Source of the DNA: Gammaproteobacteria bacterium
GTDB lineage: Bacteria; Pseudomonadota; Gammaproteobacteria; Ga0077536
Assembly: GCA_965278995.1 (NCBI GenBank)
Contig: OZ257136.1
Coordinates: 1,777,458-1,841,457 of the forward strand
Reading direction: 5' to 3'
DNA length: 64,000 nt
This document shows, in pieces, positions 24,158 to 43,683 of the stretch (positions are counted from its first letter, which is position 1; each line of letters begins with the position of its first letter). A program made the translations under genes and the position numbers. Below the pieces are notes generated by a model, which saw only the letters and a program-made list of their open reading frames with translations, had not been told where the DNA came from and ran no database searches.

Positions 24158-24229
24158 TCGGTGCAGTCCGCTGCGCTGGCCGCGCATCGGTCGGGCGTTA
24201 TCAGTTTATGCCTGACGGGTTTTGATATT

Positions 24230-24248: not shown

Positions 24249-24280
24249 ATTATTATTCATTACCTAGTTGGAGCATTCCC

Positions 24281-24943: not shown

Positions 24944-25026
24944 CAGCGCGCGCCAGCGGCCAGCGCTCCGAGCCCATCACACGCAATGGGCTTGGTTTGC
25001 GGAAGGCATGCTGTCGCGAAATCCTG

Positions 25027-27414: not shown

Positions 27415-28244
27415 GCGGGCTCGCGCCCGGACGATGAGACGAACCAGGCACGGCGCGCCTGTCGTTCGAGGGCGCGGCGACCCGACAATGCCATCAGCGC
27501 CGCACCGAGCATCAGCATCGGTGCCGGCAGCGGTATCGGCGTGGTCGGCGGCGGCTCCACCGGCGGAACGACAATGGTTGCTGGCCCGATATCGACTGCA
27601 ACTGCTTCCAGACTGAGACTGGTCGACACGGCAGCGAAATCGAACGTGTAGACCGAGGATGCGGCATTCAGATGCCACAGATAGAGATATTCATTGTCGA
27701 CGCCGGTACCTTCCCCGCCTGGACCCGAGGCGGAACCCTCATGCAGTACGATCTTTGAACTGAACGTCTGGCCGAGCAGTTTGACCGACGTGTCATCCAG
27801 GTCCGAACCAAGTACGGCCACCTGCAGCGCGACCGTAATCGGGTGTGTACCGAGCGCGGTATGCGCAGCAGTCGGCTGCACGATCAGATCGAAATCGAGG
27901 ATGTCGGAAAAACTATAGATATTGGCACTGCCGGTGATGAACGCGGCCGGTGCCGCAGTCGACCCTTTTTTTTTGGTGAGCAGAATCGCGCCGTTAGTGA
28001 GAGTCCCGAAATTACCCTTGTCGGGCGTGGTATCGGGCAGCACCGGAGCGGTACCTAAAGGCGGTGGATTGCCGAACGCGTCGTAGTGCACATACACACT
28101 GCCGGCGGTGCCCCGATTCCAATCGCCCCACGCCGCCGGACCCGGATCTTGAAAGGCGACAGTCACAGCCAGCGCCGTTACGGGTAGGCCCAAAGCGCCG
28201 ACCGTTGCGCCCAGGAAAGCGCCAGTAGTAGTCCGTCGTGACAT
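27402..28244 (-). CDS. Exported protein with VPLPA-CTERM-like signal (family member B)
   Basis: ATG 28244 follows GAGG; the ORF-track start is a TTG inside the Fur-like box. It has an RR-containing signal peptide and the C-terminus TPIPLPAPMLMLGAALMALSGRR. It is paralogous to members A and C (DWNRGTAG...YDAFG, GSANIYSFS, AVDIGPA). Confidence 0.78.
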   Translation of the reverse strand: MSRRTTTGAFLGATVGALGLPVTALAVTVAFQDPGPAAWGDWNRGTAGSVYVHYDAFGNPPPLGTAPVLPDTTPDKGNFGTLTNGAILLTKKKGSTAAPAAFITGSANIYSFSDILDFDLIVQPTAAHTALGTHPITVALQVAVLGSDLDDTSVKLLGQTFSSKIVLHEGSASGPGGEGTGVDNEYLYLWHLNAASSVYTFDFAAVSTSLSLEAVAVDIGPATIVVPPVEPPPTTPIPLPAPMLMLGAALMALSGRRALERQARRAWFVSSSGREPAQNR

Positions 28245-28278
28245 GCCCGCAGCCTCGGTTGTTCTATGCAAGCTCTAT

Positions 28279-28297
28279 AATAATACGAATCGTTCTC
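28279..28297. promoter_or_regulatory. Fur-box-like operator in a divergent promoter region
   Basis: AATAATACGAATCGTTCTC matches 13/19 of the Fur consensus. The flanks (AATCGTTxTCA...TATTATTATT) resemble the 24230 box region. It lies between member B (-) and hutZ (+). Confidence 0.5.
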
Positions 28298-28384
28298 ACT
28301 ACTAGTATTATTATTGAAGGGAATTTACCATACGCGCAACCGCGCTGGCGGACAGAACCATCGATTTTCAGCAGGAGTAATGGC

Positions 28385-28903
28385 ATGAGTGCGCTTCCGG
28401 CAGATCTGGACACGGTAGGTCACGAGGCACGCACGTTTCGCGATCGCTTCCTGACCTTGCAACTGGCCACCTGCTCGAACGACGGTGTACCGACAGCCAG
28501 CTATGCGCCTTATGCGCTCAGCGCGGCGGATACGTTCTACATCTACGTAAGCGAACTTGCTGCGCACACGCCCAATCTGCACGCTGGCCGCCCGCTCAGC
28601 GCGCTGTTCATCGAATCGGAAGCAGACGCCGAACACGTCTTTGCGCGCAGACGGCTGACCTGCCGTTGTGAAGTCGAATCGCTGCCGCGAGGGGATGACC
28701 GCTTCGATGCCGCACTCGACGCGCTGCGTGAACGTTTCGGCCCGTTCATGGATCATTTGCGGACATTCCAGGACTTCCATGCGTTTGCCTTGATTCCGCG
28801 CCACGCGATTTACGTGCGCGGCTTTGCGCAGGCGTATGAACTGCCGGATGCGGATTTCAATGCCATCCGCCATCAGAACGAACAAGGCCATCGCAATGCG
28901 TGA
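28385..28903 (+). CDS. hutZ: Heme utilisation / heme-degrading protein HutZ (PNPOx-like fold)
   Basis: ATG 28385 follows AGGAG. Blocks TLQLATCSNDGVPTASYAPY, FARRRLT, RFGPFMDHLRTFQDFHAF, YVRGFAQAYEL and NEQGHRNA parallel Vibrio HutZ. Confidence 0.85.
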   Translation: MSALPADLDTVGHEARTFRDRFLTLQLATCSNDGVPTASYAPYALSAADTFYIYVSELAAHTPNLHAGRPLSALFIESEADAEHVFARRRLTCRCEVESLPRGDDRFDAALDALRERFGPFMDHLRTFQDFHAFALIPRHAIYVRGFAQAYELPDADFNAIRHQNEQGHRNA

Positions 28904-29756
28904 GCGCGCGTGCTCGATAATGTTCGCCGTCGTGTTGCCGGCTCTGGTTTGCGTTCTGTCGACGCCGGCCATCGCTGCCGAGCGCATCGTCTCCATTGGC
29001 GGTTCTGTCACCGAGATTCTGTTTGCGCTCGGCGCAGGCGATCAGCTCGTTGCGGTGGATGCCACCAGCATTTACCCACCTGCAGCGGATGCGCTTCCCG
29101 ACGTCGGCTATCTACGTGCGCTGGCGCCGGAACCGATACTCGCGCTGAAGCCCGATCTGGTGCTGTGCGAAGCCGACGCCGGTCCACCGGAAACGCTCGC
29201 GCAGCTGCACGCTGCCGGCACCGCCACGGTCATGATCCCGGATGAACCCAGCGCTGCTGGCGTCGCGGCAAAAATCCGCGCTGTCGCTGAAACAATCGGG
29301 CGTAGCGCGGCCGGGGAAGAACTCGTTGCCTCGCTCGAGCGCGATCTGAGTGCAACTGCCGCAAGTATCCCGCGCGTCGACGGCAAGCAACCGCGGGTGC
29401 TGTTCGTGCTTCAGTTCGATGAAGGCTCCGTGATGGCCGCCGGGCGCGGGACATCGGCTGATGCGATCATCACACTGGCTGGCGGAATCAATGCTGCCGC
29501 GGCGTTCAACGGTTATAAAGCGATGAACGGTGAAGCGCTGCTGGCGACTGCCCCGGACTACATTTTGACCATGGAGCGCGCCATCGCCGGGCTGGGCTCA
29601 CACGATGCTGTGCTCGCGCTGCCGGCGGTCAGACTGACACCAGCCGCCAAAGCGGGCCGCCTGGTTGTCATGGACGGCTTGTTGCTGCTTGGCTTTGGTC
29701 CGCGCCTCGGTCTTGCCACGCGACAGCTTGCTGACGCTATTTACGCTACTGACTGA
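28896..29756 (+). CDS. hmuT: Hemin ABC transporter periplasmic binding protein
   Basis: ATG 28896 overlaps the end of hutZ. It has a signal peptide and the motif ERIVSIGGSVTEILFALGAGDQLVAVD. Confidence 0.88.
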   Translation: MRERACSIMFAVVLPALVCVLSTPAIAAERIVSIGGSVTEILFALGAGDQLVAVDATSIYPPAADALPDVGYLRALAPEPILALKPDLVLCEADAGPPETLAQLHAAGTATVMIPDEPSAAGVAAKIRAVAETIGRSAAGEELVASLERDLSATAASIPRVDGKQPRVLFVLQFDEGSVMAAGRGTSADAIITLAGGINAAAAFNGYKAMNGEALLATAPDYILTMERAIAGLGSHDAVLALPAVRLTPAAKAGRLVVMDGLLLLGFGPRLGLATRQLADAIYATD

Positions 29757-29778
29757 AACACGCCCGGTACACAGTGGC

Positions 29779-30834
29779 GTGATCACGCACGAACTGTTCT
29801 CGCCACGCGCGCGTGTCATCTCCGCCTGCCTGACAACCACCGTAGTCGCTGCACTGATCAATCTGGCGTGGGGACCTGTCGCCGTTCCACTGGCCGATGT
29901 GATCGCGATTCTGAGTTCCGGAAGCAGCGCGTCTGGCACCCTTTCAGCGAGTGTAGTGCTCGATCTGCGCGGCCCGCGCGTCCTACTGGGCGCATTGGTC
30001 GGCGCGACTCTGGCGGTCGCCGGCGCCGCATTTCAAGGATTGTTTCGCAATCCGCTCGCCGATCCCAGTCTGCTCGGCATCTCGGCCGGCGCTGCCACCG
30101 GCGCAGTCGCGTTTATCGTCCTCGGGCGCGCGCTTGTGCCCGTAGAATTGGGATCAACCAACTGGTCAATTTATGGACTGCCGATAGCCGCCAGCCTTGG
30201 CGCAGTACTGGCGGCTGCCCTGCTCTATCTGCTCGGGCGGCGAGCGGGTGCGCTGGATGTCGCGACCTTGCTGCTGTCAGGAATTGCCATCAACGCGTTG
30301 TGCTCGGCGCTATCGGGGCTATTGATTTTTACCAGCGATGAGCAGGAGCTCCGTGAGCTCACGTTCTGGTCACTCGGTTCCTTGTCGCGCGCGCATTGGT
30401 CGACTCTACTTCCAGCACTACCGCTGCTGGTGGCCGCCATGAGTGGCTTGTTTGCCTTGGCTGGCGCAGTTAACGCTCTCGCTCTCGGAGAGGCAGCCGC
30501 CGCACATCTCGGTTTTCGAGTCGAACGCCTGAAAGGTGTGCTCGTTCTCGCCACCGCTGTCGCCGTCGGTACAGCGGTGGCACTGACCGGCGTGATTGCG
30601 TTCATTGGTTTGATCGTTCCGCATGCAGTCCGAAGTCTCATCGGAGCCGACAATCGCTATGTATTCGCCGCCTGCGCTGGTGCTGGTGCTACGCTGATGC
30701 TGCTCGCCGATCTCCTTGCGCGCAGCGTTGCCATGCCGGCGGAGATGCCGATAGGCATTTTGACCAGTTTGCTCGGCGGCCCGTTTTTTCTGTGGTTGAT
30801 GCTGTATCGGCGCAGCGTCCTGGCGATGCCATGA
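29779..30834 (+). CDS. hmuU: Hemin ABC transporter permease (FecCD family)
   Basis: The sequence is FecCD-like with multiple TM segments. The start is uncertain; I chose the first in-frame GTG after the hmuT stop. The ORF-track ATG 29665 would overlap hmuT by 92 nt. Confidence 0.82.
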   Translation: MITHELFSPRARVISACLTTTVVAALINLAWGPVAVPLADVIAILSSGSSASGTLSASVVLDLRGPRVLLGALVGATLAVAGAAFQGLFRNPLADPSLLGISAGAATGAVAFIVLGRALVPVELGSTNWSIYGLPIAASLGAVLAAALLYLLGRRAGALDVATLLLSGIAINALCSALSGLLIFTSDEQELRELTFWSLGSLSRAHWSTLLPALPLLVAAMSGLFALAGAVNALALGEAAAAHLGFRVERLKGVLVLATAVAVGTAVALTGVIAFIGLIVPHAVRSLIGADNRYVFAACAGAGATLMLLADLLARSVAMPAEMPIGILTSLLGGPFFLWLMLYRRSVLAMP

Positions 30835-31643
30835 TAACGACCACGGCCGTCACCTATCGCGTCGGTCATCGAGCCTTGGTCGACGACTGCACCGTGGATT
30901 TCGCAAGCGGCGGTGTGACCGTCGTACTCGGACCGAATGGTGCCGGTAAATCGACCTTATTGCGGCTGCTTGCCGGCGACCTGTCGGCAACCGCCGGCGG
31001 TATTGCGCTGGCCGGTCGCCCACTCAGCGAATGGCCGCTGGCTGCGATCGCCAGGTTCCGCGCTGTCGTCACCCAGTTCAACCAGATTGCCTTTCCCTTC
31101 ACCGTCGCCGAAGTTGTCGCACTCGGCCGACTGCCCCATCGTGCTCAAACAACGGCTGCAGCGGACGCCGCTGCGGTAAGCAACGCCCTGCATTGCATGG
31201 GAGTCGCGGAACTGGCCGCACGCAGCTACCCGACACTGTCCGGCGGTGAACAACAACGGGTTGCCATTGCGCGTGCACTGGCGCAGCTGGATGTGCGCAA
31301 TATCGCTGCCGGGCAAACGCGCTATTTCCTGCTCGATGAACCGACGGCCAGCCTCGATCTGGCTCATCAGCACACCCTCATGCGTCAGCTGCAGGAAATC
31401 GCGCGCGCGGGCTGCGCGGTGATCGCGGTTCTGCATGACATCAATCTCGCGCTCACCTACGCCGACAAGGTGGTAGTGATGGACAACGGTCGTATCGTGG
31501 CGGCGGGCATTACGGCCGAAACGTTGACTGTCGAGTGCATCGAGCGCGTATTTCGAGTGGCGACCCGACGCGTTACGACCGGCCCCGGCTGCGAAACCCT
31601 AATTTTCGGTGGCGCTGTCTGCGCTCCGCCGAGACTGTCATGA
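30831..31643 (+). CDS. hmuV: Hemin ABC transporter ATP-binding protein
   Basis: It is ATGA-coupled to hmuU. It has Walker A GPNGAGKST, the signature LSGGEQQR and Walker B YFLLDEP. Confidence 0.9.
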   Translation: MITTTAVTYRVGHRALVDDCTVDFASGGVTVVLGPNGAGKSTLLRLLAGDLSATAGGIALAGRPLSEWPLAAIARFRAVVTQFNQIAFPFTVAEVVALGRLPHRAQTTAAADAAAVSNALHCMGVAELAARSYPTLSGGEQQRVAIARALAQLDVRNIAAGQTRYFLLDEPTASLDLAHQHTLMRQLQEIARAGCAVIAVLHDINLALTYADKVVVMDNGRIVAAGITAETLTVECIERVFRVATRRVTTGPGCETLIFGGAVCAPPRLS

Positions 31644-31713
31644 ACATCGTGCGTGCTAACATCCACCGCACTACTCGGAATAATCAGCCTTTTCTCCATT
31701 GTGGATTGTATCG

Positions 31714-32262
31714 ATGACCATGTCAGGCCCGTCGGTGTTCGACTTCACACCACGAACGACCGTCATCCGGACCGTCGCCGCGAGTTGGGGCGCAGGCGGC
31801 TTCATTGCGATATTGATCCTCGCGCTGCAGAAGCTTACTCCCGTCGCGCTGGATGCCCTGCGCCACGAACTGACGACGACGCACTGGCTGGTGCTGGTCT
31901 CGAACAGCATATTCATGGCGTACAGCGAAGGTTATCGGGGATTCCAGTGCGCTTATTCGCCGCGACTCGCGGCACGCGCACTGTGGCTGTATCGCCATGC
32001 CGACTGGCGGCAATGTCTGGTGGCGCCGCTGTTGTGCATGGGTTTCTTGCAGGCGCCGCGGCGACGCATGATCAGTGCGTGGGTCCTGACCGCGATGATC
32101 ACCGTGCTCGTGATCGTCTTTCGAAGTCTGCCGCAACCGTGGCGCGGGATCCTCGACGCTGGCGTTATCGTCGGGCTGGGCTGGGGCCTGCTGGCGACAT
32201 TGGCAGCGTGCGTGCAGGCGATGCTCAAACCAGGCTCAACGGTCGATCCTGAAGTCTGCTGA
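31714..32262 (+). CDS. Uncharacterised 4-TM membrane protein, paralogue 2
   Basis: I chose ATG 31714; the ORF track starts at a TTG at 31699. It is paralogous to 23627-24157 and follows hmuV after about 70 nt. Confidence 0.7.
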   Translation: MTMSGPSVFDFTPRTTVIRTVAASWGAGGFIAILILALQKLTPVALDALRHELTTTHWLVLVSNSIFMAYSEGYRGFQCAYSPRLAARALWLYRHADWRQCLVAPLLCMGFLQAPRRRMISAWVLTAMITVLVIVFRSLPQPWRGILDAGVIVGLGWGLLATLAACVQAMLKPGSTVDPEVC

Positions 32263-32334
32263 GACCCGCTCAGGCACGCCCAATCGGCAGCCCGCAGACC
32301 TGCCTATTGCGCAAAACACGGCGCGCCCTTACAT

Positions 32335-32530
32335 TCGCTAGTCTACGTACAGGTGCCGTCGACTAGCGTAAGTCACGGTGAAACGAGAAGACGGTGCGCT
32401 GCCACGCAGCAATCCCGTCACTGCCCCCGCAACGGTAAGTGGGTGCGCTGCTGATACTGCCACTGTGCTTCGCACGGGAAGGCCAGCAAGCGCGCGCAAG
32501 CACCCCACGAGTCCGGAGACCGGCCTGTGC
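32335..32530 (+). promoter_or_regulatory. Cobalamin (B12) riboswitch
   Basis: The conserved blocks appear in the correct order: GGTGCC, GAGAAGACGGTGCG, AATCCCGTCACTGCCCCCGCAACGGTAAG, CACTGCCACTG...GGGAAGGCC, and the B12 box GAGTCCGGAGACCGGCC. The element lies about 40 nt upstream of the GGAGGG RBS and ATG 32570. Confidence 0.85.
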
Positions 32531-32569
32531 GCTGTTGTTTCGTCATGTCGCGGAGGGCGACTGTTGAGC

Positions 32570-34759
32570 ATGCGCACGCGCGTCCTCACTCTATTGTCTT
32601 TTTTCGTTCACCGGACCGGTAACGGGCGGCCACGCCGGCCCGTTGTCCTTGCTCTGGTTCCCGTTCTCGCCATCGTTGCTGCTTCGGTTGCGTCACCACA
32701 AATGGCGCTCGGCGCGTCGGCGCTCGAAATGGATGAGTTGATCGTAACCGGCGTTCGTGAGCAGCGCCTGTTGCTGGCGCCTCGCAGCATCGCGGTGATT
32801 ACGGCGGACGATATCGCGCGCAGCGCTTCCAGCAATCTCGTCGACTTGCTGGCGAAGGAAGCGAACGTCAATCTGCGCAGTTTTTTCGGCAACGACAAAT
32901 TCGCCGGTGTCGATATCCGCGGCATGGGCGATACCTTTTCGAGCAACGTCCTTGTGCTGATCGACGGCGTACGCATCAACGCAGTTGATTTGAGCGGTGC
33001 AGATTTTTCCAGCATTCCGCTCGACCAGATTGAGCGCGTCGAGGTCATCCGCGGCGCCAATGCCGTTCGCTACGGTAACGGCGCTGTCGGCGGTGTGATC
33101 AATATCCGCACGCGACGCCCGTTGCCGGGGACTCATGCGCAGTCGCGACTCACTGCCGGCAGCTTTGACAACCACGGCGGCGCGCTGTCGGCCAGCACCG
33201 GAATCCGCGGCCTCGAACTGGACCTGCGCAGCTCACTAAACGACAGCGACGGCTACCGTGATAACGGCCAGTTCTACAAGAAGGACGGCGCTTTCGGTCT
33301 GCGTTTTCGTGGATTGAGCTGGTTGGATGCCTATGTCCGCGCCGAACTGCATCAGGATCGTTACGGTATTGCAGGCCAGATCAGCGGTACCGCATTCAGA
33401 CGTTCATCGAAAGCCCGCCAGGCCACTGCTACACCAGACGATCATGGCGAAACCATGGATCGACGTTACCGTGCCGGGCTAAATGTCGACGGCGGACGTT
33501 TCGGTCGCTACAGCGGTCTTGCCGCTTATCGCGCTCGTACCAACCCGTACGTCATCGGCTTCACATCGTTGCTCAGCATCCGCGAACAGGAAAGCACGAT
33601 TGAATCTGTGACGCGCGACTATCAGGGGACCTACACGCTTCCACTCACGCTGCTCGGGAACAATCACGAACTGGTGTTCGGCTACGAAGATCTGAACGCC
33701 GATTACGAGCGTCGCGAAAACGGCCGCGGTTACCTCGATCGCAGCCGCAGTTTGAATGGGGCTATCCGCGATCGTTCCGGCTTCGTCAGTTCGCGCTGGT
33801 CGCTGCCACATGCGTTCGCGCTCGATCTCGGTTATCGCCGCGATCAATTCGCGGTGCGGCGGCACGAGGAACGCCTGCAGCGTGTGTGCGACACCGTATT
33901 TATCGATACGGTCGTCAACACGACCGTGTTCGTCGAAGTCGCGCCCGGTGTATTCGTCCCGATAGCCGTGCCCGTTACGGTCTCGCTGCCAGTGGAAAGC
34001 AACTGCCGCGGAGAACTCCTGGTTGCCACCGGCCAGCGCGAAACCTGGCGCAATTCAGCCTGGGAAGCCGGCCTGAGCTGGCAACCGACGAACTGGAGCA
34101 ACATTTATGTCAGCCATCACCGGAGTTTTCGCAATCCGAATGTCGATGAGCTGACGCTGGCTACCGGCGACCTGGCGCCACAACGCGGCAAGCACTGGGA
34201 AATCGGCCTTCGCATGCAACCCACCGAGCGCTTCGAAGCGGCATTGTCGTTGTTTCACATGCGCGTGGCCGACGAAATATTCTTCGGTTACGACCCGGTC
34301 ATGCGCCGCGAAGTGAACCGCAATCTCGATCAGGGGACGACCCGTATGGGCACCGAGATCGAATTGAAGTATGACTTCACGGCCGTGCTTTCCGGTTGGA
34401 CCAACCTGAGCTACATCGACGCCCGCATCGTCGGTGACGATACCTTCATTCCGCTCGTTGCACGCGACAAGATTGCCGCTGGTATCGAGTGGGAACCACT
34501 TGCTGGATTAAGTTTTTCGGCCTCGTGTACGCATGTCGGTCGTCGTTTCGACGGTAACGATTTCGATAATCGCAGTTTCGATCACCTCGACGCCTACCAT
34601 GTCGTCGACGCCAAACTACGTTGGCGTGCGCCACATTATTCTGTCGCCGCGAGTGTCAGCAATGTACTCGACGCCATCTATGCGACTGCCGGATACAGCG
34701 GCACGCTCTATCCCATGGCGCCGCGTTCATTCATGGTCGAACTCGCGTTCGACATCTGA
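32570..34759 (+). CDS. TonB-dependent receptor, BtuB-like (assigned from riboswitch context)
   Basis: I used the internal ATG 32570; the ORF-track N-terminus would run across the riboswitch. It has a TonB box DELIVTG, a plug region (IERVEVIRGANAVRYG), FRNPNVDEL and a C-terminal aromatic residue. Confidence 0.85.
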   Translation: MRTRVLTLLSFFVHRTGNGRPRRPVVLALVPVLAIVAASVASPQMALGASALEMDELIVTGVREQRLLLAPRSIAVITADDIARSASSNLVDLLAKEANVNLRSFFGNDKFAGVDIRGMGDTFSSNVLVLIDGVRINAVDLSGADFSSIPLDQIERVEVIRGANAVRYGNGAVGGVINIRTRRPLPGTHAQSRLTAGSFDNHGGALSASTGIRGLELDLRSSLNDSDGYRDNGQFYKKDGAFGLRFRGLSWLDAYVRAELHQDRYGIAGQISGTAFRRSSKARQATATPDDHGETMDRRYRAGLNVDGGRFGRYSGLAAYRARTNPYVIGFTSLLSIREQESTIESVTRDYQGTYTLPLTLLGNNHELVFGYEDLNADYERRENGRGYLDRSRSLNGAIRDRSGFVSSRWSLPHAFALDLGYRRDQFAVRRHEERLQRVCDTVFIDTVVNTTVFVEVAPGVFVPIAVPVTVSLPVESNCRGELLVATGQRETWRNSAWEAGLSWQPTNWSNIYVSHHRSFRNPNVDELTLATGDLAPQRGKHWEIGLRMQPTERFEAALSLFHMRVADEIFFGYDPVMRREVNRNLDQGTTRMGTEIELKYDFTAVLSGWTNLSYIDARIVGDDTFIPLVARDKIAAGIEWEPLAGLSFSASCTHVGRRFDGNDFDNRSFDHLDAYHVVDAKLRWRAPHYSVAASVSNVLDAIYATAGYSGTLYPMAPRSFMVELAFDI

Positions 34760-34786
34760 GCGCTATTCCTCGTACAGGTACCTGTC

Positions 34787-35677
34787 ATGCGATTACTTTT
34801 CTCCCGCAACTTTACTGCTTTTACCAGCATTCTCGCACTCGCAGCGTTGGTCATTACAGCAGCACAAGCCGGTCCTTTCGCGCCTGCTGCCGGCCAACCC
34901 GGCAGCACCGCTGTGTCCAGTAACGATGCCAGCATCACGGCCTGGGCGACCGGCTATTCCGCCTACCAGGTTGGTGCCAACGTCGATACTACCTGGCAAA
35001 CGCCGGGTCTGGCGCTGGGATCGGCCACTGGCGACAGTTTTGGCATTGTCGGTCTCGGCGACGCCGGCCGCATCACGCTCAGTTTTGCCGGTTCCATCTA
35101 CAACGGTCCGGGTTGGGATTTCGCGGTTTTCGAAAACAGCTTCAGCGACACCTTTCTCGAACTTGCTTTCGTCGAAGTCTCCTCCAATGGCACGAGCTTT
35201 TTCCGCTTTCCGAGTTTCTCGTTGACGCCAGCTGCAGTGGGCGCTTTTGGAACGATGGATCCGACCAACATCGACGGCCTTGCCGGCAAATACCGCCAGG
35301 GATTCGGAACCGCTTTCGATCTGGATATTTTTCGTACCACGCCAGGGATCGACATCAATGACATTCGATTTGTACGCATCGTCGATATCGTCGGTAACGG
35401 GTCGAGCGTCGACAACTGGCCGACCAACCTCGGCGGTCCGCATCCGATCTATGACCCTTATCCAACTATTGGCAGCGCCGGCTTCGATCTCGATGCGGTA
35501 GCCGTGCGTTATCTCGATGCCGACCCGCCGCCCGTCGATGTGTCATCGAAGCAGGTGCCGATACCAGCTACGTTCGCGCTATTACTTGCCGGTGCGCTTG
35601 GCATGGCCGGTGCGCGTCGATTGGAAAGGAAATCAATGTCTCCCGATTTCATTCACTACAACAGGAACCACCTATGA
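34787..35677 (+). CDS. Exported uncharacterised protein with VPIP-type C-terminal anchor signal
   Basis: It has an ATG start, a signal peptide and the C-terminus KQVPIPATFALLLAGALGMAGARRLERK. It is ATGA-coupled to the next gene. Confidence 0.75.
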   Translation: MRLLFSRNFTAFTSILALAALVITAAQAGPFAPAAGQPGSTAVSSNDASITAWATGYSAYQVGANVDTTWQTPGLALGSATGDSFGIVGLGDAGRITLSFAGSIYNGPGWDFAVFENSFSDTFLELAFVEVSSNGTSFFRFPSFSLTPAAVGAFGTMDPTNIDGLAGKYRQGFGTAFDLDIFRTTPGIDINDIRFVRIVDIVGNGSSVDNWPTNLGGPHPIYDPYPTIGSAGFDLDAVAVRYLDADPPPVDVSSKQVPIPATFALLLAGALGMAGARRLERKSMSPDFIHYNRNHL

Positions 35678-36531
35678 AAGCGCTCCCCTTGATCACACTC
35701 GCGGCCTGGACCGGACTGGCGGCCGTCCCGGCAGCCCATGCAGCTCTTGTCAGCTTCGAAGACGTCGTCATGCCGAACGAGCAAAGCTATTCCGGTCCTG
35801 GCGGCGGACGCTACTGGTCCGGGCTGGTGCCGCCTGCCAATGGTCAGGTCGACAGTCAGTTCGTTTCGGGCAACGCATCATTTCCGAACACGAACAACGA
35901 GTGCTGCGGTGGCGCGACATTCTGGAGCGGCTTCGCCTATTCGAATACAACGGATACAACGACTGCTGGCTTCGGCAATCAGGTCAGCGCGTTCGCTGGT
36001 GGTGGCGCCGGAGGCAGCGCGAATTATGCAATCGCTTTCGCCGGTGCATTCAACCCGCTGCGTCTGTCTTTCGACAGCCCTACGACGCTGAAACGCGCAA
36101 ATCTGACCAATACAACCTATGCCGCCTTGTCGATGCGCGATGGCGATTCTTTTGCCAAGCGTTTCGGCGGCGTCAGCGGCGATGATCCGGATTATCTGCT
36201 GTTGACGATCACCGGTAAGGACGCCAATGACGACGATACCGGAACAGTGGACTTTTATCTGGCGGATTTTCGCTTCGCCGACAACGCCGACGACTACATA
36301 CTCGACAGCTGGGCAGCAGTCGAACTGAGTACGCTGGGCGCGGTCACCGCTCTGGAGTTCACGATGACGACTACCGATGTCGGGCAGTTCGGGCCGAATA
36401 CTCCGTTCTATTTCGCTATCGACAATATCGAGCCGGTTCCACTGCCGTCCGCCGTCTGGGTATTCGCGCCCGCACTTGGCTGGCTCGCTGCTGCCGGGAA
36501 GCGACGCAAGCACGGCGTTATTGTGCGCTGA
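35674..36531 (+). CDS. DUF4465-like exported protein with VPLP-type C-terminal anchor signal
   Basis: It has a signal peptide. Blocks SFEDV, YWSG, FPNT, FWSGFAYSNTTDTTTAGFGNQ, GGSANYAIAF, NTTYAALSMRDGDSFAKRFGG, YLLLTITG, VDFYLADFR and YFAIDNIE are typical of DUF4465. The C-terminus is EPVPLPSAVWVFAPALGWLAAAGKRRK. Confidence 0.78.
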   Translation: MKALPLITLAAWTGLAAVPAAHAALVSFEDVVMPNEQSYSGPGGGRYWSGLVPPANGQVDSQFVSGNASFPNTNNECCGGATFWSGFAYSNTTDTTTAGFGNQVSAFAGGGAGGSANYAIAFAGAFNPLRLSFDSPTTLKRANLTNTTYAALSMRDGDSFAKRFGGVSGDDPDYLLLTITGKDANDDDTGTVDFYLADFRFADNADDYILDSWAAVELSTLGAVTALEFTMTTTDVGQFGPNTPFYFAIDNIEPVPLPSAVWVFAPALGWLAAAGKRRKHGVIVR

Positions 36532-36542
36532 AGAACGCTGCT

Positions 36543-36577
36543 AAAAATTGCGACTTCGGCATTCGAGCCGAAGTCGC
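36543..36577 (-). terminator. Hairpin terminator between convergent operons
   Basis: A perfect 11-bp inverted repeat GCGACTTCGGC/GCCGAAGTCGC has a 6-nt loop. On the minus strand it is followed by a T-run (AATTTTT). Confidence 0.7.
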
Positions 36578-36583: not shown

Positions 36584-37312
36584 TCATCGAATCGGCGACG
36601 CGCGCCGCCGCCGGTACAGCATCACAACAGCACTCATCGCCATCCATGCCGGCGGCAATGGTATCGGCGAGATCGAACCATGCCCGCTGCCATAAACAGC
36701 GGTCAACGCGCTGATCATGTCCGGTGCGAGCGGGAACAAAGGCCCGTCGTAGGCCGACGGAAGCGTGCCTGGCAAAACGCCGTCATCGCTGTTGACGAAA
36801 TGCCCCATGCCGAGCGCATGACCGAGTTCGTGTTGCGCGACGGCGTAAAACAGCGTCAATGACCACCCGGCACCGAAACGCTCAGCATTGAAGACAATAT
36901 CTCCAGCCAGACCACTGGCTGTATCAAAAGGAAAATAGGCATACGCGTTGGCGCCATCGATGTGCGCGACCTGGCCGATGCGGATGTCGGCCAGGCCGGT
37001 CGGATCATACTCACCGCTCTCCGGCAACGGACCGTTATCGCGCACTTCACGGAAATGTATCGGCAGCACTGCCGCGTAGTCCCACAGCGCTGCCTCGAAC
37101 GCTCCGCGAAGCGCATCGTTGGCAAGCGCTGAGCTGCCGCGTGCCGGTTGCAGGGCACCATCCAACAGGTTGTCGTAACTGTAGGTCAGCGTTATCGGAC
37201 TGCCGATACCACCCGCTAGCGGCCACGCTGCGTACATCGGGTAGTAGCCGGCTGCATACACCACGGCAGGTGTGAAAAGGCTCAGAAGCAGGAATGTCTT
37301 AAGCCTGTGCAT
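36584..37312 (-). CDS. Matrixin-like (metzincin) zinc metalloprotease with C-terminal IPLP anchor signal
   Basis: It has an ATG start and a signal peptide. The zinc motif is HELGHALGMGH (HExxHxxGxxH). The C-terminus is SPIPLPPAWMAMSAVVMLYRRRR. Confidence 0.82.
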   Translation of the reverse strand: MHRLKTFLLLSLFTPAVVYAAGYYPMYAAWPLAGGIGSPITLTYSYDNLLDGALQPARGSSALANDALRGAFEAALWDYAAVLPIHFREVRDNGPLPESGEYDPTGLADIRIGQVAHIDGANAYAYFPFDTASGLAGDIVFNAERFGAGWSLTLFYAVAQHELGHALGMGHFVNSDDGVLPGTLPSAYDGPLFPLAPDMISALTAVYGSGHGSISPIPLPPAWMAMSAVVMLYRRRRASPIR

Positions 37313-38378
37313 CGTGGCGACTCCGTGTTCGACGCGCGAACATCACGCTGCTGATCGCAGTGCCCGCCAGCCACAACGATGGCGGCACGGGGACGGGCGT
37401 CACCTGCCAGCCGATGTCCGCCAGGCCGGCGTAATCGAGGTCGGTTGGCAACTCACGCAGACCCCTTTCAGTGCTCGGATCCATCAGCGTCTCCTGCGAG
37501 ACTCCATCGACCGTCCTGTAGATGCCATTTGCCCAATGCAGCGCCAGCGAGTCGAGTGGAACCGCCGCGCCGTAGGCCGCGACCGACTGCGTGCCTGTAA
37601 ACGCGCCGGCCTCGACCTGGGAAAACCACGAGTCTGCTTCACCGTAGCCAAGAATGTGCGCCAACTCGTGTGTCGCCGTGGTCACAAAATCCGGTCGCCC
37701 TGGGACAAGCGTGTTGCCCAGGTCTGGGCCATCGAGACCGAAGTACCAATCGTTATTGGCGTTGAACCAGATGGCGCCGCCCCACGGACCGAAGTCGCTG
37801 GCCACAGCGCCAGCCGCATTCGCCTGACCGCGATACAGCACACTGTCGACAAAGGACGCCGGTCCAGTGGCAGTGAGCGCCGAACCGACACCAGCGAATC
37901 CCAGCACGCCGGGTGCCGATGATGAACCGCCAACGAAGACGCGAAGCGTGTTGGCCGGAATCGACTCATTTAGCACAGTCACAGGCGGCCCCTGCAGACT
38001 CGGATGCGTGAACGTTACCGACCAATTTGAGCCCGTGCCGGGTTCGATCGCACTCAACTGGTCGGAAAACCCGGCATAAAAACTAGCTGCCTGCTCGAGC
38101 ACGGCACGACGTTCGAGTCGCGGAGTGCCGTTCACCTGATCGGTGAAAAAGCCGCGTGTGTCGTAACGATAATCGAACTCGATGATGAGTGCCCGCGCCT
38201 CCCCCGCCGCCAGCAGGGCCAGCGCCAACACGCTGCCCTGATAGATGGCGGTAAGACGTCGCGATGAAGTTGCGGTGTCCGCCGGGAAACCACTGCGATC
38301 AACGCCCGGAGCAAGAGCGCCGACGGACACCGCGTTGAGGAGCGATCGCAGTGGGGGGAGACGGTGGCGGCCGCTCAT
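37299..38378 (-). CDS. Zincin-like metalloprotease-domain exported protein with C-terminal VPVP anchor signal
   Basis: ATG 38378 is ATGA-coupled to the upstream gene. It has the motif THELAHILGYGE and ETLMDPS. The C-terminus is TPVPVPPSLWLAGTAISSVMFARRTR. Confidence 0.72.
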   Translation of the reverse strand: MSGRHRLPPLRSLLNAVSVGALAPGVDRSGFPADTATSSRRLTAIYQGSVLALALLAAGEARALIIEFDYRYDTRGFFTDQVNGTPRLERRAVLEQAASFYAGFSDQLSAIEPGTGSNWSVTFTHPSLQGPPVTVLNESIPANTLRVFVGGSSSAPGVLGFAGVGSALTATGPASFVDSVLYRGQANAAGAVASDFGPWGGAIWFNANNDWYFGLDGPDLGNTLVPGRPDFVTTATHELAHILGYGEADSWFSQVEAGAFTGTQSVAAYGAAVPLDSLALHWANGIYRTVDGVSQETLMDPSTERGLRELPTDLDYAGLADIGWQVTPVPVPPSLWLAGTAISSVMFARRTRSRHDAQA

Positions 38379-39115
38379 GCGCAAGCAGACCGTTTGCGGC
38401 AGTGCAGAAGACCCACGAGCAACGGCCCGGCAAGCACCAGTGCGCCAGGCAGCGGGACTGCGCTGACGGTCAGATAACTCGCGCCGGGGCTGTTCGAGTT
38501 ATTGAGAAATCCATGCAGAAACTCGTTGCCGGAAATGTCGTCGCTGCCCGTCAAGGCAATCGCGAAAGCGGTGTTGGCACCGCTGATCCAATCGTTGACG
38601 ATGCGCGACACATCGAAACTGACTGCACCGAATCCATCGACACTGGTCTGCGCAGCGGGATCTGCCGCAACGATGTAATCGTTGAAGAAAGTCAGCCAGT
38701 CTACCGGTCCACCGGGATTGGTATCGTCGGTAATGCTCAACAGCGGATTGGCTGTCACCGCATGCGCCGAAACCAGAAAAGGCGTCGTCGAATCGGCATC
38801 GGCGTTAAAGCCGCCCGCGACACTCTGCACAGTGAGCGTTGCACTGACCGGCCCGCTCAGACTCGCGATCGCCGCGCTGTCGAAGGTCAGGTAAATCGTT
38901 TCGGCGCCAGCGCCGCCAAACGGATTGTCGGTCGAAACGCGATGTACTGGCCGATTGTCGCCGGCGTATCCGCGTACACGATTGGTTCCGGTGAAGAACG
39001 ACGAGGTCATGACGTCTTGCTGGACGGCGATGACAGCTGCTGTCGCGCTGCTCGCGGCGCTCGCCAGCAGCAGGAAGCAAAGACCTTTAAGGGCTTTCGA
39101 TACTGCGTTGTTCAT
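38375..39115 (-). CDS. Exported protein (possibly DNRLRE-like beta-sandwich) with VPLP anchor signal
   Basis: ATG 39115 is ATGA-coupled to the upstream gene and is followed by a signal peptide. It contains VSFDVSRIVNDWISGANTAFAIALTG. The C-terminus is SAVPLPGALVLAGPLLVGLLHCRKR. Confidence 0.7.
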   Translation of the reverse strand: MNNAVSKALKGLCFLLLASAASSATAAVIAVQQDVMTSSFFTGTNRVRGYAGDNRPVHRVSTDNPFGGAGAETIYLTFDSAAIASLSGPVSATLTVQSVAGGFNADADSTTPFLVSAHAVTANPLLSITDDTNPGGPVDWLTFFNDYIVAADPAAQTSVDGFGAVSFDVSRIVNDWISGANTAFAIALTGSDDISGNEFLHGFLNNSNSPGASYLTVSAVPLPGALVLAGPLLVGLLHCRKRSACA

Positions 39116-39870
39116 GCAGTCTCCCCCCATCCCGCGCGGCGGCGCGCGATGCCAGCCAGGCCGGTCAGCAGCGCCGAGCCGAACAGCCAGGCAGCGGCCG
39201 GTACCGGGACAGCGGCGGGGCCGATATCCACAGCCGCTTGCGTGAATGACAAATGCGGACCGCCTTGCAGGACGAAGGAATAGCTCGCGGCAGCTGTCGG
39301 CAGCGTCCACGTGAATAACAGGTGTTCGAGCAGAACCGGGCCGAAGACCGAATTGAAGTCAGCCTCCTGGTAGGTGATGGTTTTGGAATCCCACTGCGCG
39401 CCGTTCAAGCTGACCGGCGCAATTGCGCCACCGAGACTGTCGAATTCAAGGGGCGTGCCCCAGGTCTCGGTCTGCAATGCGACGGTCACCGGCCCGTTTG
39501 CCGGCCCCTGGCTGCCATCGACCGTGATCGTAAAAATTTCAACGCCACTGAAGTTGTACAGATTGCCGGATCCTGCGACGAACGTGCCAGCGTTCCAGCC
39601 GAATGTCGCGGAAGGCGTACCCGACTTGCCGACATCGACTGGACGTGGGCTCGGGCCGCCCGTGAATTGATCCCATTCGGCCCAGGTCGTGCCGGCGGCG
39701 CCACGCGTCCAGCCGCCCCAGGTTACGCCGGCGTCGCTAGGCAGATCGAAGCCGAATCCGGCCGCGTAGGGATTGGGGCCGGTAGCAAAATCGGCCTGCG
39801 CAGTGCCGGCGACGAGCGCGAGCGCCAGGGTGGCCGTTGATGCGACCGTTGATCGATAGCTGATTGTCAT
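39112..39870 (-). CDS. Exported protein with VPLPA-CTERM-type sorting signal (family member C)
   Basis: ATG follows GAGGAG and is followed by the signal peptide ...AGTAQA/DF. The C-terminus is AAVPVPAAAWLFGSALLTGLAGIARRR. It is paralogous to members A and B. Confidence 0.8.
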   Translation of the reverse strand: MTISYRSTVASTATLALALVAGTAQADFATGPNPYAAGFGFDLPSDAGVTWGGWTRGAAGTTWAEWDQFTGGPSPRPVDVGKSGTPSATFGWNAGTFVAGSGNLYNFSGVEIFTITVDGSQGPANGPVTVALQTETWGTPLEFDSLGGAIAPVSLNGAQWDSKTITYQEADFNSVFGPVLLEHLLFTWTLPTAAASYSFVLQGGPHLSFTQAAVDIGPAAVPVPAAAWLFGSALLTGLAGIARRRAGWGETA

Positions 39871-39959
39871 CTCGTCATCTCCTCAAAGCTGAATTTTTTT
39901 ATGGACAGTTTCGTCGCGGTTATCTGACGGCATCGCGTACTTATCTGCTGTTAATTAAT

Positions 39960-39978
39960 CTAAATGATAATCCTTATC
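39960..39978. promoter_or_regulatory. Fur box
   Basis: CTAAATGATAATCCTTATC matches 15/19 of the consensus, with the core AATGATAATCxTTATCATT. It is AT-rich and lies about 90 nt upstream of the gene starting at 39870. Confidence 0.75.
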
Positions 39979-40059
39979 ATTAGCAATAAGTGCGTTATGT
40001 GGAATTTCGGCGGGTTGGCTGGCGCTCGCCCAAACTCACAGCGCCATGATTTCCTCTTG

Positions 40060-40120: not shown

Positions 40121-40699
40121 ATGAACCTCACGCCACTGACGCAGAATTTCGTCCTCCACTTCGGTGAAATGGGTAGCCGCTGGGGCATCAATCGAACGGT
40201 CGGACAAATCTACGCGCTGCTCTACGTCGCCGAGCAGCCATTGAATGCCGACGACATTGCCGGCGCGCTGGGTTTCTCACGCTCGAACGTGAGCATGGGT
40301 TTGAAGGAATTGGAGTCCTGGCGCCTGACACGCGTACAGCACCTGCCGAATGATCGGCGCGAATATTTTTCTGCACCCGAAGATGTGTGGACGATTTTCC
40401 GCACACTGGCCGACGAACGCCGCAAACGGGAAATCGACCCAACTTTGTCGCTGCTGCGCACGTCACTGATGAGTGAGGCCACCACGCCGGCCGAGCAGCA
40501 TGCGCAGAGTCGCATGCGCGAAATGCATCAGCTCATCGAACTCGTCACGCTATGGTTCGACGAGATTCGGAGACTCGAACCCGAGACACTCGTGCAATTA
40601 ATGCAAATGGGTTCAAAAGTCACACGCCTGCTCGAATTCAAGGACCGCCTGAAAGGCGTTACCACCCGGAAGTCCGGACCTGCGGCCGCCGACTCATGA
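40121..40699 (+). CDS. GbsR/MarR-family transcriptional regulator
   Basis: It has an ATG start and the winged-HTH region GINRTVGQIYALLYVAEQPLNADDIAGALGFSRSNVSMGLKELESW. Confidence 0.82.
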   Translation: MNLTPLTQNFVLHFGEMGSRWGINRTVGQIYALLYVAEQPLNADDIAGALGFSRSNVSMGLKELESWRLTRVQHLPNDRREYFSAPEDVWTIFRTLADERRKREIDPTLSLLRTSLMSEATTPAEQHAQSRMREMHQLIELVTLWFDEIRRLEPETLVQLMQMGSKVTRLLEFKDRLKGVTTRKSGPAAADS

Positions 40700-40715
40700 G
40701 CGTGAGGTAGTTGCC

Positions 40716-42083
40716 ATGCATGCCCTCGACCCCGTCTTGCTAGCACGTGCGCAATTCGGCGCAAACATCACCTTTCACATACTATTTCCGACCATTTCTA
40801 TCGCCCTGACCTGGATCCTGCTGTATTTCAAGCTGCGCTATAACGCATCGCTCAGGCGTGGTGACCCGCAGGCTTCGGTCTGGCGCGAAGCCTACCGTTA
40901 CTGGGTCAAAGTTTTCGCACTGACATTCGCACTCGGTGTTGTCTCCGGTGTGACCGTGAGTTTTCAATTCGGCACCAACTGGCCCGGCTACATGGAAACG
41001 GTCGGCAATATTGCCGGGCCATTGCTGGCTTACGAAGTGTTGACGGCATTTTTTCTGGAAGCGACGTTTCTCGCCATCATGTTGTTCGGCGCACGTCGCG
41101 TGTCGAATCGCCTGCACACGCTTGCCACACTGCTCGTAGCCATTGGCACGACGCTGTCGGCGTTCTGGATCCTGGCTTTGAATTCGTGGATGCAGACGCC
41201 CGCGGGATTCACCCTCATCGACGGTCGCGCTCACGCGACCGACTGGGTTGCCGTGATCTTCAACCCGTCGTTCCCGTATCGTTTGACGCACATGCTGCTC
41301 GCCTCAGGGCTCACCACGGCTTTCCTGATTGCCGGCATTTCTGCTTACCGGATTCTCCGCGGTGACCGCGCCGCCGAGGTCCAGATGACATTGCGCACCG
41401 GCATCTATCTCGCCGCGCTGCTGATCCCATTGCAGATCGTAGCCGGCGATATGCACGGTCTGAACACCCTCGAATATCAACCGGCGAAAGTCGCGGCGAT
41501 GGAAGGCATCTGGGAAACAGCGCGTGGCGTACCTGTGCTGCTGTTCGCCCTGCCCGACGGCGTTGCGCGCCGTAATGATTACGAACTCGGCATAACTGGC
41601 GGTGCCAGCCTCGTCCTGACGCACGACCGCAATGGTGAGGTACGCGGGTTGAACGAATTCCGCGATGCGCACCCTCCGGTATTCGCGCTGTTCTGGGCGT
41701 TTCGCGTCATGGTCGGCACCGGTCTGTTGATGCTGGCAGTGTCGTGGCTGGCAAGTTGGCACCTCAAACGCACAGGTGAACTTGCACCATGGCTCTGCCG
41801 CGTTCTCGTTGCCATGACGTTTGCTGGTTGGGTCGCCACTGTCGCCGGCTGGTACGTCACCGAGATTGGGCGCCAACCGTATCTGGTCTACGGTGTACTA
41901 CGAACAGCGGACGCTGCCTCCAGCGTGCCTGCCGGCATGATTGCTACGACACTGGCGATGTACCTGATCCTGTACCTCGGTTTGCTGGTTGCATACGTAT
42001 TGGTCTTGTTTCATCTCGCGCGAAAAGCTGACACCGGACTGCTTGCCCATGACAGCATCGTCGCTCCCGCAGGGAGCGCGTGA
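40716..42083 (+). CDS. cydA: Cytochrome bd-type quinol oxidase subunit I (short Q-loop, CIO-like)
   Basis: ATG follows GAGG. Motifs ARAQFGANITFHILFP and GWYVTEIGRQPY fit CydA. At 455 aa it is shorter than long-Q-loop CydA proteins. Confidence 0.9.
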   Translation: MHALDPVLLARAQFGANITFHILFPTISIALTWILLYFKLRYNASLRRGDPQASVWREAYRYWVKVFALTFALGVVSGVTVSFQFGTNWPGYMETVGNIAGPLLAYEVLTAFFLEATFLAIMLFGARRVSNRLHTLATLLVAIGTTLSAFWILALNSWMQTPAGFTLIDGRAHATDWVAVIFNPSFPYRLTHMLLASGLTTAFLIAGISAYRILRGDRAAEVQMTLRTGIYLAALLIPLQIVAGDMHGLNTLEYQPAKVAAMEGIWETARGVPVLLFALPDGVARRNDYELGITGGASLVLTHDRNGEVRGLNEFRDAHPPVFALFWAFRVMVGTGLLMLAVSWLASWHLKRTGELAPWLCRVLVAMTFAGWVATVAGWYVTEIGRQPYLVYGVLRTADAASSVPAGMIATTLAMYLILYLGLLVAYVLVLFHLARKADTGLLAHDSIVAPAGSA

Positions 42084-42087
42084 CGCC

Positions 42088-43107: not shown

Positions 43108-43113
43108 GAAGCG

Positions 43114-43554: not shown

Positions 43555-43683
43555 GACGGGATCCTTGTGCTGGCAACGGGAAATCATGCGCCCGCGCCGC
43601 AACGAGACCCGCACGGGCATCGTCAGACTAGCGATTGTTTGAGCACCTTGGCATACGGATAAGCTACGTATGACCAGCTGCGT

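Follow-up and report, generated by a model that had tools for sequence, protein, structure and literature searches.

A Cobalamin Riboswitch-Controlled Operon of a Gammaproteobacterium Encodes a BtuJ-Family Protein and a Member of an Unnamed, Widespread Partner Family, Both with PEP-CTERM-Class Tails

Introduction

Why would an operon headed by a cobalamin (vitamin B12) riboswitch in a gammaproteobacterium encode two exported proteins in addition to a TonB-dependent outer-membrane receptor, and what does the one that belongs to no named family do? The locus lies in a stretch of 64,000 nucleotides (nt) from a gammaproteobacterial genome (assembly GCA_965278995.1, contig OZ257136.1, positions 1,777,458–1,841,457 of the forward strand), which we refer to in its whole length as the window and within which all coordinates are given. 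Its riboswitch is followed by the receptor gene, gene 2, which encodes the protein of the unnamed family, and gene 3, which encodes a DUF4465 protein. A riboswitch leader of the same family (RF00174) stands ahead of a TonB-dependent receptor gene, btuB, in Escherichia coli; E. coli has no surface accessory proteins, whereas the window operon has two. Surface B12 relays have been worked out almost wholly in the lipoproteins BtuG, BtuH, BtuJ, and BtuK of gut Bacteroides, of which only BtuJ has been traced to other phyla. Here, we propose that the operon is probably a B12-repressed system for corrinoid capture and import in which gene 2 supplies a second capture or hand-off protein.

Operon Architecture and the Riboswitch Leader

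The operon is composed of the following features.

32334–32542, plus strand: cobalamin riboswitch aptamer (RF00174, 100.1 bits, full model) with the B12 box at 32509–32525
32547–32561, plus strand: expression-platform hairpin GTCGC-GGAGG-GCGAC, formed in both folds, whose loop contains the Shine-Dalgarno sequence, 8 nt upstream of the ATG at 32570
32570–34759, plus strand: TonB-dependent outer-membrane receptor of 729 amino acids (aa) with Plug and barrel domains, a predicted functional analogue of BtuB
34787–35677, plus strand: gene 2, 296 aa, unnamed family; signal peptide (AQA/GPFAPAAG), β-sandwich core at residues ~29–250, and VPIP-helix-RR tail
35555–35632, plus strand: PEP-CTERM-class (VPLPA-type) tail of gene 2, residues 257–282, VPIP-helix-RR motif
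35674–36531, plus strand: gene 3, 285 aa, BtuJ-family DUF4465 protein (PF14717); signal peptide, β-jellyroll at residues 83–252, and VPLP-helix-KRRK tail
36436–36510, plus strand: PEP-CTERM-class tail of gene 3, residues 255–279, VPLP-helix-KRRK motif
36550–36577, no strand assigned: 11-bp GC-rich hairpin between convergent operons, found by terminator scan, likely a two-way terminator at the operon end

A covariance-model search identified a full-length cobalamin riboswitch upstream of the ATG at 32570 (model positions 1–189 of 189, E 7.7e-24, against a gathering score of 31.5 bits), and this is the sole Rfam match in the window. The B12 box quoted in a preliminary description of the locus, GAGTCCGGAGACCGGCC, lies inside the aptamer at the position listed above, which bears out the riboswitch proposed there. 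The 15-mer hairpin downstream of the aptamer, as well as its spacing from the start codon, is the same in the window and in the three nearest loci that share its gene order (L001, L003, and L010), with flanks that differ. A terminator scan found no intrinsic terminator in the leader, and a promoter scan found no sigma-70-like promoter at 32262–32334. Given that the Shine-Dalgarno hairpin is invariant and that no terminator was found in the leader, we infer that control is most likely translational and exerted through this hairpin.

Genes 2 and 3 overlap by an ATGA, as originally described for both exported proteins, whereas the junction between the receptor and gene 2 lacks such coupling and consists of a 27-nt gap between the stop at 34759 and the ATG at 34787. 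No btuFCD genes follow gene 3, in agreement with the first description; beyond the terminal hairpin lie convergent minus-strand genes.

The receptor contains the Plug (PF07715, 90.5 bits) and barrel (PF00593, 137.8 bits) domains of Pfam, and among solved structures E. coli BtuB is nearest to it (E 3.8e-28). The two proteins align (receptor residues 55–205, BtuB residues 6–155) over the plug region only, beginning at the TonB box, where a TonB-box-like DELIVTG in the receptor (residues 55–61) aligns with BtuB residues 6–12. The cutoffs of the BtuB equivalog models are missed by a wide margin (145.5 vs 599.7 bits for TIGR01779 and 128 vs 836 bits for NF007926), and the scores against models of siderophore and heme receptors are about equal. 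In our reading, this is a receptor under B12-riboswitch control that does the work of BtuB but is not its orthologue.

Gene 3 Encodes a BtuJ-Family Protein

By sequence, gene 3 is clearly a member of the BtuJ family. It matches PF14717 (DUF4465) at 176.9 bits against a cutoff of 25 (protein residues 83–252, model positions 5–176 of 176), contains the sequence blocks quoted when it was first called DUF4465-type, and matches solved B12 complexes with E values of 1.2e-26 (9HMU) and 1.5e-20 (9FCT, BtuJ1). Eight diverse DUF4465 proteins, all that were tested, bind B12, and two contact tyrosines and the HI-loop motif NTPAYF have been named for the family (PMC13398666). Both tyrosines are conserved in gene 3: Y146 in the DE helix and Y245 in the HI loop of BtuJ1 correspond to Y149 (LTNTTY) and Y246 (NTPFYF), the HI-loop motif reading NTPFYF rather than NTPAYF. 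By analogy with the homologs for which binding has been shown, gene 3 would bind corrinoids tightly through these loop tyrosines. It thus shares its family, HI-loop motif, and DE-helix tyrosine with BtuJ1 and BtuJ2 of Bacteroides thetaiotaomicron and D5EK51 of Coraliomargarita akajimensis (Protein Data Bank [PDB] entries 9FCT, 9I2L, and 9HMU) and, like BtuJ, is encoded behind a cobalamin riboswitch and beside a TonB-dependent receptor. The difference lies in the anchor. A lipoprotein signal is found in Bacteroides BtuJ and in >70% of the DUF4465 family, whereas gene 3 has a leader of the signal-peptidase-I type and a C-terminal VPLP-helix-KRRK tail in place of the N-terminal lipid anchor.

The preliminary description had equated DUF4465 proteins with BtuH, which we correct here: the DUF4465 proteins are BtuJ1 and BtuJ2, and BtuH, which is separate from DUF4465, is composed of PKD domains and a distinct C-terminal B12 domain. 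It had also presented the locus as a Bacteroidetes-style module in a proteobacterium. The operon does combine B12 acquisition with a B12-binding family, but its oddity was overstated, because the occurrence of DUF4465 in Pseudomonadota, often beside TonB-dependent receptors, has already been published (PMC13398666). We find the same three-gene set in many Beta- and Gammaproteobacteria, Desulfobacterota, Verrucomicrobiota, and Planctomycetota; culturable carriers of the operon include Methyloversatilis universalis FAM5 (L018) and Aquabacterium soli (L025). With an RF00174 riboswitch, a receptor, and a DUF4465 protein of a B12-binding family (PMC13398666), the proposed role of the operon in outer-membrane B12 acquisition under riboswitch control stands, and we consider it very likely that the operon takes up corrinoids across the outer membrane under repression by B12 and with the help of a BtuJ-type binder.

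The Gene 2 Family Is Associated with B12 Uptake Loci

Gene 2 has >5,000 homologs, whose labels in the source databases, if any, are "hypothetical" or "PEP-CTERM sorting domain-containing protein." The homologs listed are 49–72% identical to the window protein, and its nearest relatives (59–67% identity) are encoded in metagenome-assembled genomes of Pseudomonadota. The mature N-terminus of the family, AGP[FY]APAAG, is nearly invariant, and many glycine, aspartate, and aromatic positions are invariant throughout. Invariant residues include W53, Y60, R140, K168-Y169-R170, D178, and D234.

We examined the gene neighborhoods of 80 gene 2 loci (designated by L numbers), with locus counts based on tblastn searches that used the window proteins as queries. 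These loci span Beta- and Gammaproteobacteria, Desulfobacterota, Planctomycetota, Verrucomicrobiota, Spirochaetota, and Kiritimatiellia, no fewer than six phyla. In 65 of the 80, the gene 2 homolog is preceded on its own strand by an RF00174 riboswitch; at least 5 of the 15 others lie on contigs that break off at the operon. DUF4465 genes occur in 63 loci, in 48 of them on the same strand and within 400 nt. TonB-dependent receptors were found in at least 51 loci, a lower bound given that the receptor of L068 was seen by Pfam and missed by tblastn. The order of the genes is not fixed: gene 2 is followed by DUF4465 and the receptor in 23 loci, DUF4465 is followed by the receptor and gene 2 in 12, the order of the window (receptor, gene 2, DUF4465) occurs in 7, and DUF4465 is followed by gene 2 and the receptor in 1, the rest being partial. 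This combination of a varied order and a retained partnership argues for selection for functional coupling over inherited synteny.

The two families are also joined in single proteins. In two Planctomycetota (L054 and L058), a signal peptide and a DUF4465 domain (Pfam, residues 60–230) are followed by a gene 2 core and a dockerin-like end. In L050 (Novipirellula) and L075 (Stieleria marina), proteins of ~2,000 aa begin with the gene 2 domain and continue with repeats, DUF4465 domains, and a dockerin-like end; Pfam confirms three DUF4465 domains and a C-terminal dockerin in L050. The proteins of L069 and L071 follow the same plan, with gene 2 preceding several DUF4465 domains. These giant Pirellulaceae proteins are encoded behind cobalamin riboswitches (L050, 5923–11964; L075, 5923–11949; L069, 2361–8351; L071, 5899–9315). 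Apparent fusions in Betaproteobacteria (P0096, P0113, and P0114; L002, L017, and L022) were rejected, given their internal PEP-CTERM tail and second signal peptide. In L002, L011, L017, and L022, gene 2 and DUF4465 are in frame with no stop between them and are called as one protein of 514–590 aa; each is an in-frame read-through of two neighboring genes, and only the fusions of Planctomycetota count as such.

Gene 2 also occurs in riboswitch-controlled B12 loci that lack a DUF4465 gene. In two Desulfobacterota (L039 and L067), it lies between the receptor and BtuF/BtuC/BtuD-like genes; in Desulfatibacillum alkenivorans (L063), it stands alone directly behind the riboswitch; and in L068, it precedes the receptor under riboswitch control. 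By this evidence, gene 2 belongs to B12 uptake independently of BtuJ and is no simple appendage of it.

Several further features of these neighborhoods were recorded. Cyclic di-GMP (c-di-GMP) riboswitches lie upstream of DUF4465 or gene 2 genes in L030 (4423–5048, Deltaproteobacteria), L036 (1832–4728, Desulfosarcina), and L038 (517–600, Desulfobacula), in tandem with a cobalamin riboswitch in L030 and L036 and without one in L038, which suggests dual control of surface proteins by B12 and c-di-GMP. In the PVC group, the gene 2 domain adjoins weakly β-propeller-like proteins in L047 (6774–7796; this protein has a near-threshold PEP-CTERM match) and L056 (4808–5947), and it is fused to β-propeller repeats in L031 (5983–8079); these neighbors and fusions are possible partners of the BtuG/BtuK kind. 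In L047 and L033, type-II-pseudopilin-like DUF1559 or N-methyl-motif genes lie downstream. In three betaproteobacterial loci, a 6S RNA gene is found within a few kilobases of the B12 operon (L007, 10331–10515; L013, 8639–8823; L027, 4592–4774), probably a mere conserved neighborhood.

Predicted Fold and Remote Relatives of Gene 2

Gene 2 did not match any Pfam family, and neither its single sequence nor the family profile matched PDB sequences. Among named families, LIC_13355 (NF033170) alone gives any signal, and 30 of 36 gene 2 members match it weakly (15–25 bits, best E 1.9e-6); the window protein scores 19.2 bits against a cutoff of 120 bits. On this sequence evidence, the LIC_13355 family is a remote relative of gene 2, and gene 2 is not a member of it. 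The Leptospira protein LIC_13355 is experimentally surface-exposed or extracellular, has been studied as an adhesin, and is reported to bind laminin and plasminogen. The weak match covers the gene 2 core region, and a surface or extracellular location would be common to both, but LIC_13355 is a lipoprotein adhesin with no reported link to B12. A divergent DUF4465 paralogue was also considered as the identity of gene 2 and rejected, since the hhalign alignment between the families is confined to their 29-residue C-terminal tails (92.5%).

AlphaFold2 models the gene 2 core with confidence (pLDDT 89.6, pTM 0.89) as a single β-sandwich that resembles discoidin and galactose-binding domains, a fold distinct from the seven-bladed β-propeller of BtuG and BtuK. 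We compared the core with 350,542 PDB chains using Foldseek, leaving out the signal peptide and tail since these lowered full-length TM-scores. The top match by query-normalized TM-score (TMq) is 8blw_B, a weak match (TMq 0.50, E 9e-4, root-mean-square deviation [rmsd] ~10 Å) in which the aligned part of the chain was not seen. Chain B of 8blw is BtuG1 of B. thetaiotaomicron, whose C-terminal domain of ~250 residues is homologous to BtuH2, and BtuH2 itself (7biz_B) ranks seventh, again weakly (TMq 0.45). Other matches include the muskelin discoidin domain, F5/8C and CBM32 modules, and the CBM32 of AlyQ, which the B12 domain of BtuH modestly resembles according to the paper describing BtuH. That both identified BtuH-domain structures surface from a search blind to B12 is suggestive but establishes neither common ancestry nor common function. 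Like the BtuH domains of BtuH2 and BtuG1 (7BIZ and 8BLW chain B), gene 2 would be a surface accessory of a riboswitch-controlled B12 locus with a CBM32-type β-sandwich; it differs from BtuH in having no detectable sequence similarity, no PKD domains, and another anchor. The profile and structure searches that the preliminary description had called for at 34787–35677 thus gave no Pfam family or PDB sequence match and, on the structural side, a confident model with weak matches to discoidin and BtuH-domain folds.

Because most of the structural matches are discoidin, F5/8C, or CBM32 sugar-binding modules, with target-normalized TM-scores of 0.5–0.6, gene 2 might instead bind no corrinoid and aid capture only indirectly, either by binding carbohydrate and so tethering the BtuJ-type protein to exopolysaccharide or lipopolysaccharide or by docking that protein onto the receptor. 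The adjacency or fusion of gene 2 and DUF4465 in most loci would fit a tether, as would the laminin and plasminogen binding reported for its relative LIC_13355 and the classical association of PEP-CTERM proteins with exopolysaccharide production (Haft 2006). The four loci in which gene 2 occurs under a cobalamin riboswitch without DUF4465 (L039, L067, L063, and L068) mean that it cannot be solely a tether for BtuJ, and the best query-normalized matches are B12 domains of the BtuH type. In addition, the similarity of the BtuH B12 domain to AlyQ CBM32 means that a CBM-like fold is compatible with corrinoid binding. On balance, we regard the role of a tether that binds no corrinoid, the main alternative to our proposal, as rather unlikely.

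C-Terminal Sorting Tails and Cellular Location

The leaders of genes 2 and 3 are of the signal-peptidase-I type, that of gene 3 ending AHA/A, and neither protein has a lipobox or any cysteine in its first 40 residues. Both end in a VPIP or VPLP motif, a hydrophobic helix, and an arginine- or lysine-rich cluster, in keeping with the initial view that the accessory proteins carry VP[LI]P anchors in place of lipoprotein signals. Such VPxP-helix-basic C-termini occur in eight open reading frames (ORFs) of the window. This architecture is that of the PEP-CTERM/exosortase system (TIGR02595, PF07589, and TIGR03370), from which the window tails differ in scoring below the curated cutoffs and in the lack of a cognate exosortase among the window ORFs scanned: the tail of gene 2 scores 18.2 bits against TIGR03370 (cutoff 25.35), and that of gene 3 does not match TIGR03370, TIGR02595, or PF07589 at E ≤ 0.01. 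VPLPA-CTERM proteins are paired with the exosortase XrtD. The homologs give a clearer signal. At E ≤ 0.01, TIGR02595 matches 17 of 36 gene 2 homologs, the PEPxxWA model 13 of 36, and the VPLPA model 4 of 36; PF07589 is recorded on many at the position of the window tail, and DUF4465 homologs in many loci have VPEP, VPLP, or VPVP tails.

The core of gene 2 is constant, and its C-terminal module varies by lineage. PEP-CTERM, PEPxxWA-CTERM, or VPLPA-CTERM tails are found in Proteobacteria, Verrucomicrobiota, and some Planctomycetota, and CFI-box-CTERM in Spirochaetota (L051 and L077; 100 and 89 bits, cutoff 40). In Desulfobacterota (L045, L046, L061, L065, L070, and L073), the C-terminal end reads GEAGFGG-x-GGCFI-x-T, which the CFI-box-CTERM model did not match in the three scanned (L045, L061, and L070) and which may be an undescribed cysteine-containing sorting signal. 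Other homologs have dockerin, PKD, or β-propeller additions. Such swapping of display modules is typical of extracellular or surface domains.

This variation bears on a second alternative, under which the products of genes 2 and 3 would carry corrinoids within the periplasm once the receptor has imported them, as BtuF does, and the tails would be inner-membrane anchors. A C-terminal helix with basic residues would keep a protein in the inner membrane if it were not processed by an exosortase, of which the scanned parts of the window yielded none; the operon itself has no btuF gene. In the published classification, moreover, the non-lipoprotein DUF4465 members are those "bearing periplasmic targeting signals" (PMC13398666), and the literature that we searched does not mention exosortase-type anchoring of DUF4465 proteins and treats the non-lipoprotein members as periplasmic. 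Against a periplasmic location, many homologs pass the curated PEP-CTERM models, and in other lineages the same core is followed by dockerin, CFI-box-CTERM, or PKD modules or lies within extracellular proteins of ~2,000 aa. L039 and L067 encode a BtuF-like protein in addition to gene 2, BtuJ1 is surface-exposed in Bacteroides, and LIC_13355 is a surface or extracellular protein. We therefore consider periplasmic carriers improbable.

Proposed Mechanism

We propose that ample intracellular cobalamin would bind the leader aptamer and turn off translation of the receptor through the hairpin that holds the ribosome-binding site, and that the three proteins would be made when B12 is scarce, all of them crossing the inner membrane by Sec. 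By analogy with PEP-CTERM proteins, an exosortase would process the tails of the accessory proteins and leave them on or beyond the outer membrane. The BtuJ-type β-jellyroll of gene 3 would there capture corrinoids, and gene 2 would be a further protein at the surface that binds corrinoids or hands them on, loading the receptor together with BtuJ as a counterpart of the BtuG, BtuH, and BtuK relay proteins of Bacteroides. For the Bacteroides proteins, transfer from BtuJ1 to BtuG2 and BtuH2 has been assayed by size-exclusion chromatography. Import into the periplasm would then fall to the receptor; the operon encodes nothing for passage across the inner membrane.

A number of observations weigh against this proposal. 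In thermodynamic predictions, the leader folds no better than shuffled sequence does (z 0.18 and 0.62); these scores are uninformative because the leader is 62% GC, so that the covariance model carries the riboswitch call, and the regulatory mechanism is one that we infer. The receptor scores are well short of the BtuB equivalog cutoffs. Searched against PDB sequences at E ≤ 10, the gene 2 family profile found neither BtuH nor any other B12 protein; Foldseek gave weak matches only (E 9e-4 to 8e-3, rmsd ~10 Å), with similar scores for generic discoidin/CBM32 sugar-binding modules, and the function of the family is so far read from genes and structural models. Both window tails fall below the curated cutoffs of the hidden Markov models, and no exosortase was found among the ORFs scanned at 40121–53721 and between 20571 and 39870. 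To our knowledge, the final location of PEP-CTERM proteins in general has not been established. The 80 loci are those of the closest relatives of the window protein in species-representative genomes and not a random sample of the >5,000 homologs.

Taking these points together with the genomic context and the weak fold match, we put the chances that gene 2 itself is a corrinoid-binding or hand-off protein at about even. A wider proposal is more tentative and, in our judgment, falls slightly short of an even chance: that gene 2 represents a new and widespread class of surface corrinoid-binding or hand-off proteins that regularly accompany BtuJ outside Bacteroidota (in Beta- and Gammaproteobacteria, Desulfobacterota, Planctomycetota, Verrucomicrobiota, Spirochaetota, and Kiritimatiellia), with a B12 domain possibly related to that of BtuH and display by exosortase or other C-terminal sorting. 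That the operon imports another substrate, such as cobinamide-type precursors, a tetrapyrrole such as heme, or a cobalt complex, with the riboswitch merely tying expression to B12 status, would accord with the similar scores of the receptor against siderophore and heme receptor models, its failure against the BtuB equivalogs, the adjoining heme-uptake cluster, and the binding of cobinamide by BtuJ1, but is very improbable given that eight of eight DUF4465 proteins tested bind B12 (PMC13398666) and the contact tyrosines are kept in gene 3, that the nearest solved receptor is E. coli BtuB, that the same gene set occurs with BtuFCD-like transporters behind cobalamin riboswitches in other genomes, and that cobinamide uptake would still be corrinoid salvage.

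Genes Surrounding the Operon

The operon is flanked by a heme-uptake cluster directly upstream (24161–31643, plus strand) and by a convergent minus-strand operon (36584–39984) that encodes four proteins, each ending in VPxP-helix-RR.

24161–24943, plus strand: VPLPA-CTERM protein of the heme-uptake cluster (28.5 bits, above cutoff)
24224–24254 and 27680–27698: Fur-box-like 19-mers of the heme-uptake cluster (up to 16/19 and 15/19, respectively)
24997–27414, plus strand: TonB-dependent heme/hemoglobin-type receptor of the heme-uptake cluster
28238–28903, plus strand: HutZ-like protein of the heme-uptake cluster
28824–31643, plus strand: HmuTUV-like ABC transporter, whose ATPase passes the heme equivalog
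36584–37312 and 37299–38384, minus strand: matrixin/metzincin-like metalloproteases with VPxP-helix-RR tails
38375–39310, minus strand: DNRLRE-like domain protein with a VPxP-helix-RR tail
39112–39870, minus strand: fourth VPxP-helix-RR protein of the convergent operon
39966–39984: Fur-box-like site (16/19) ahead of the convergent minus-strand operon

The ABC transporter of the heme-uptake cluster has the BtuCDF fold and lies directly upstream of the operon region. We rejected its identification as BtuFCD, given that its ATPase scores 291.7 bits against the NF010068 cutoff of 261; it is a heme transporter of the HmuTUV type. Horizontal transfer of the operon was likewise rejected, its GC content (0.58–0.62) being the same as that of its surroundings. 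Between the transporter and the riboswitch, a predicted membrane protein of 187 aa (31699–32262, plus strand) matched no Pfam or NCBIfam family. The initial placement of the B12 operon between two Fur-controlled operons is supported by the Fur-box-like motifs (16/19) at 24230–24254, ahead of the heme-uptake cluster, and at 39966–39984 and holds at the level of motifs only. The proteins of the convergent operon may be iron-regulated, exosortase-sorted surface proteases. Farther downstream, a multi-PAS GGDEF-EAL protein of 1,376 aa (44875–49005, plus strand), a protein of c-di-GMP turnover, adjoins cytochrome bd oxidase genes (40716–43107).

Implications for Extracellular B12 Acquisition

Set against the literature of 2025–2026, there is nothing unusual about the riboswitch, the receptor, or the BtuJ homolog. 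What is new relative to the literature that we searched, which contains no link between PEP-CTERM and B12 uptake and no description of the gene 2 family, is the predicted exosortase-class anchoring of B12 capture proteins and the unnamed, very widespread family that partners BtuJ. The window operon and the 80 loci indicate that, outside Bacteroidota, BtuJ is usually accompanied by this second, uncharacterized family. The link between gene 2 and B12 is unusually clean, with a riboswitch in most loci, a varied position, fusions to BtuJ, and BtuB/BtuFCD-like neighbors in loci without BtuJ, and this makes gene 2 a well-founded candidate binder. If gene 2 does bind corrinoids, the relay model of Bacteroides would extend to much of the bacterial domain. 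Extracellular B12 relays of several proteins would then be a general bacterial strategy with exchangeable components, and a first role in nutrient acquisition would fall to PEP-CTERM/exosortase substrates, for most of which no function is known. The gene 2 family would also aid the prediction of which environmental bacteria scavenge cobamides.

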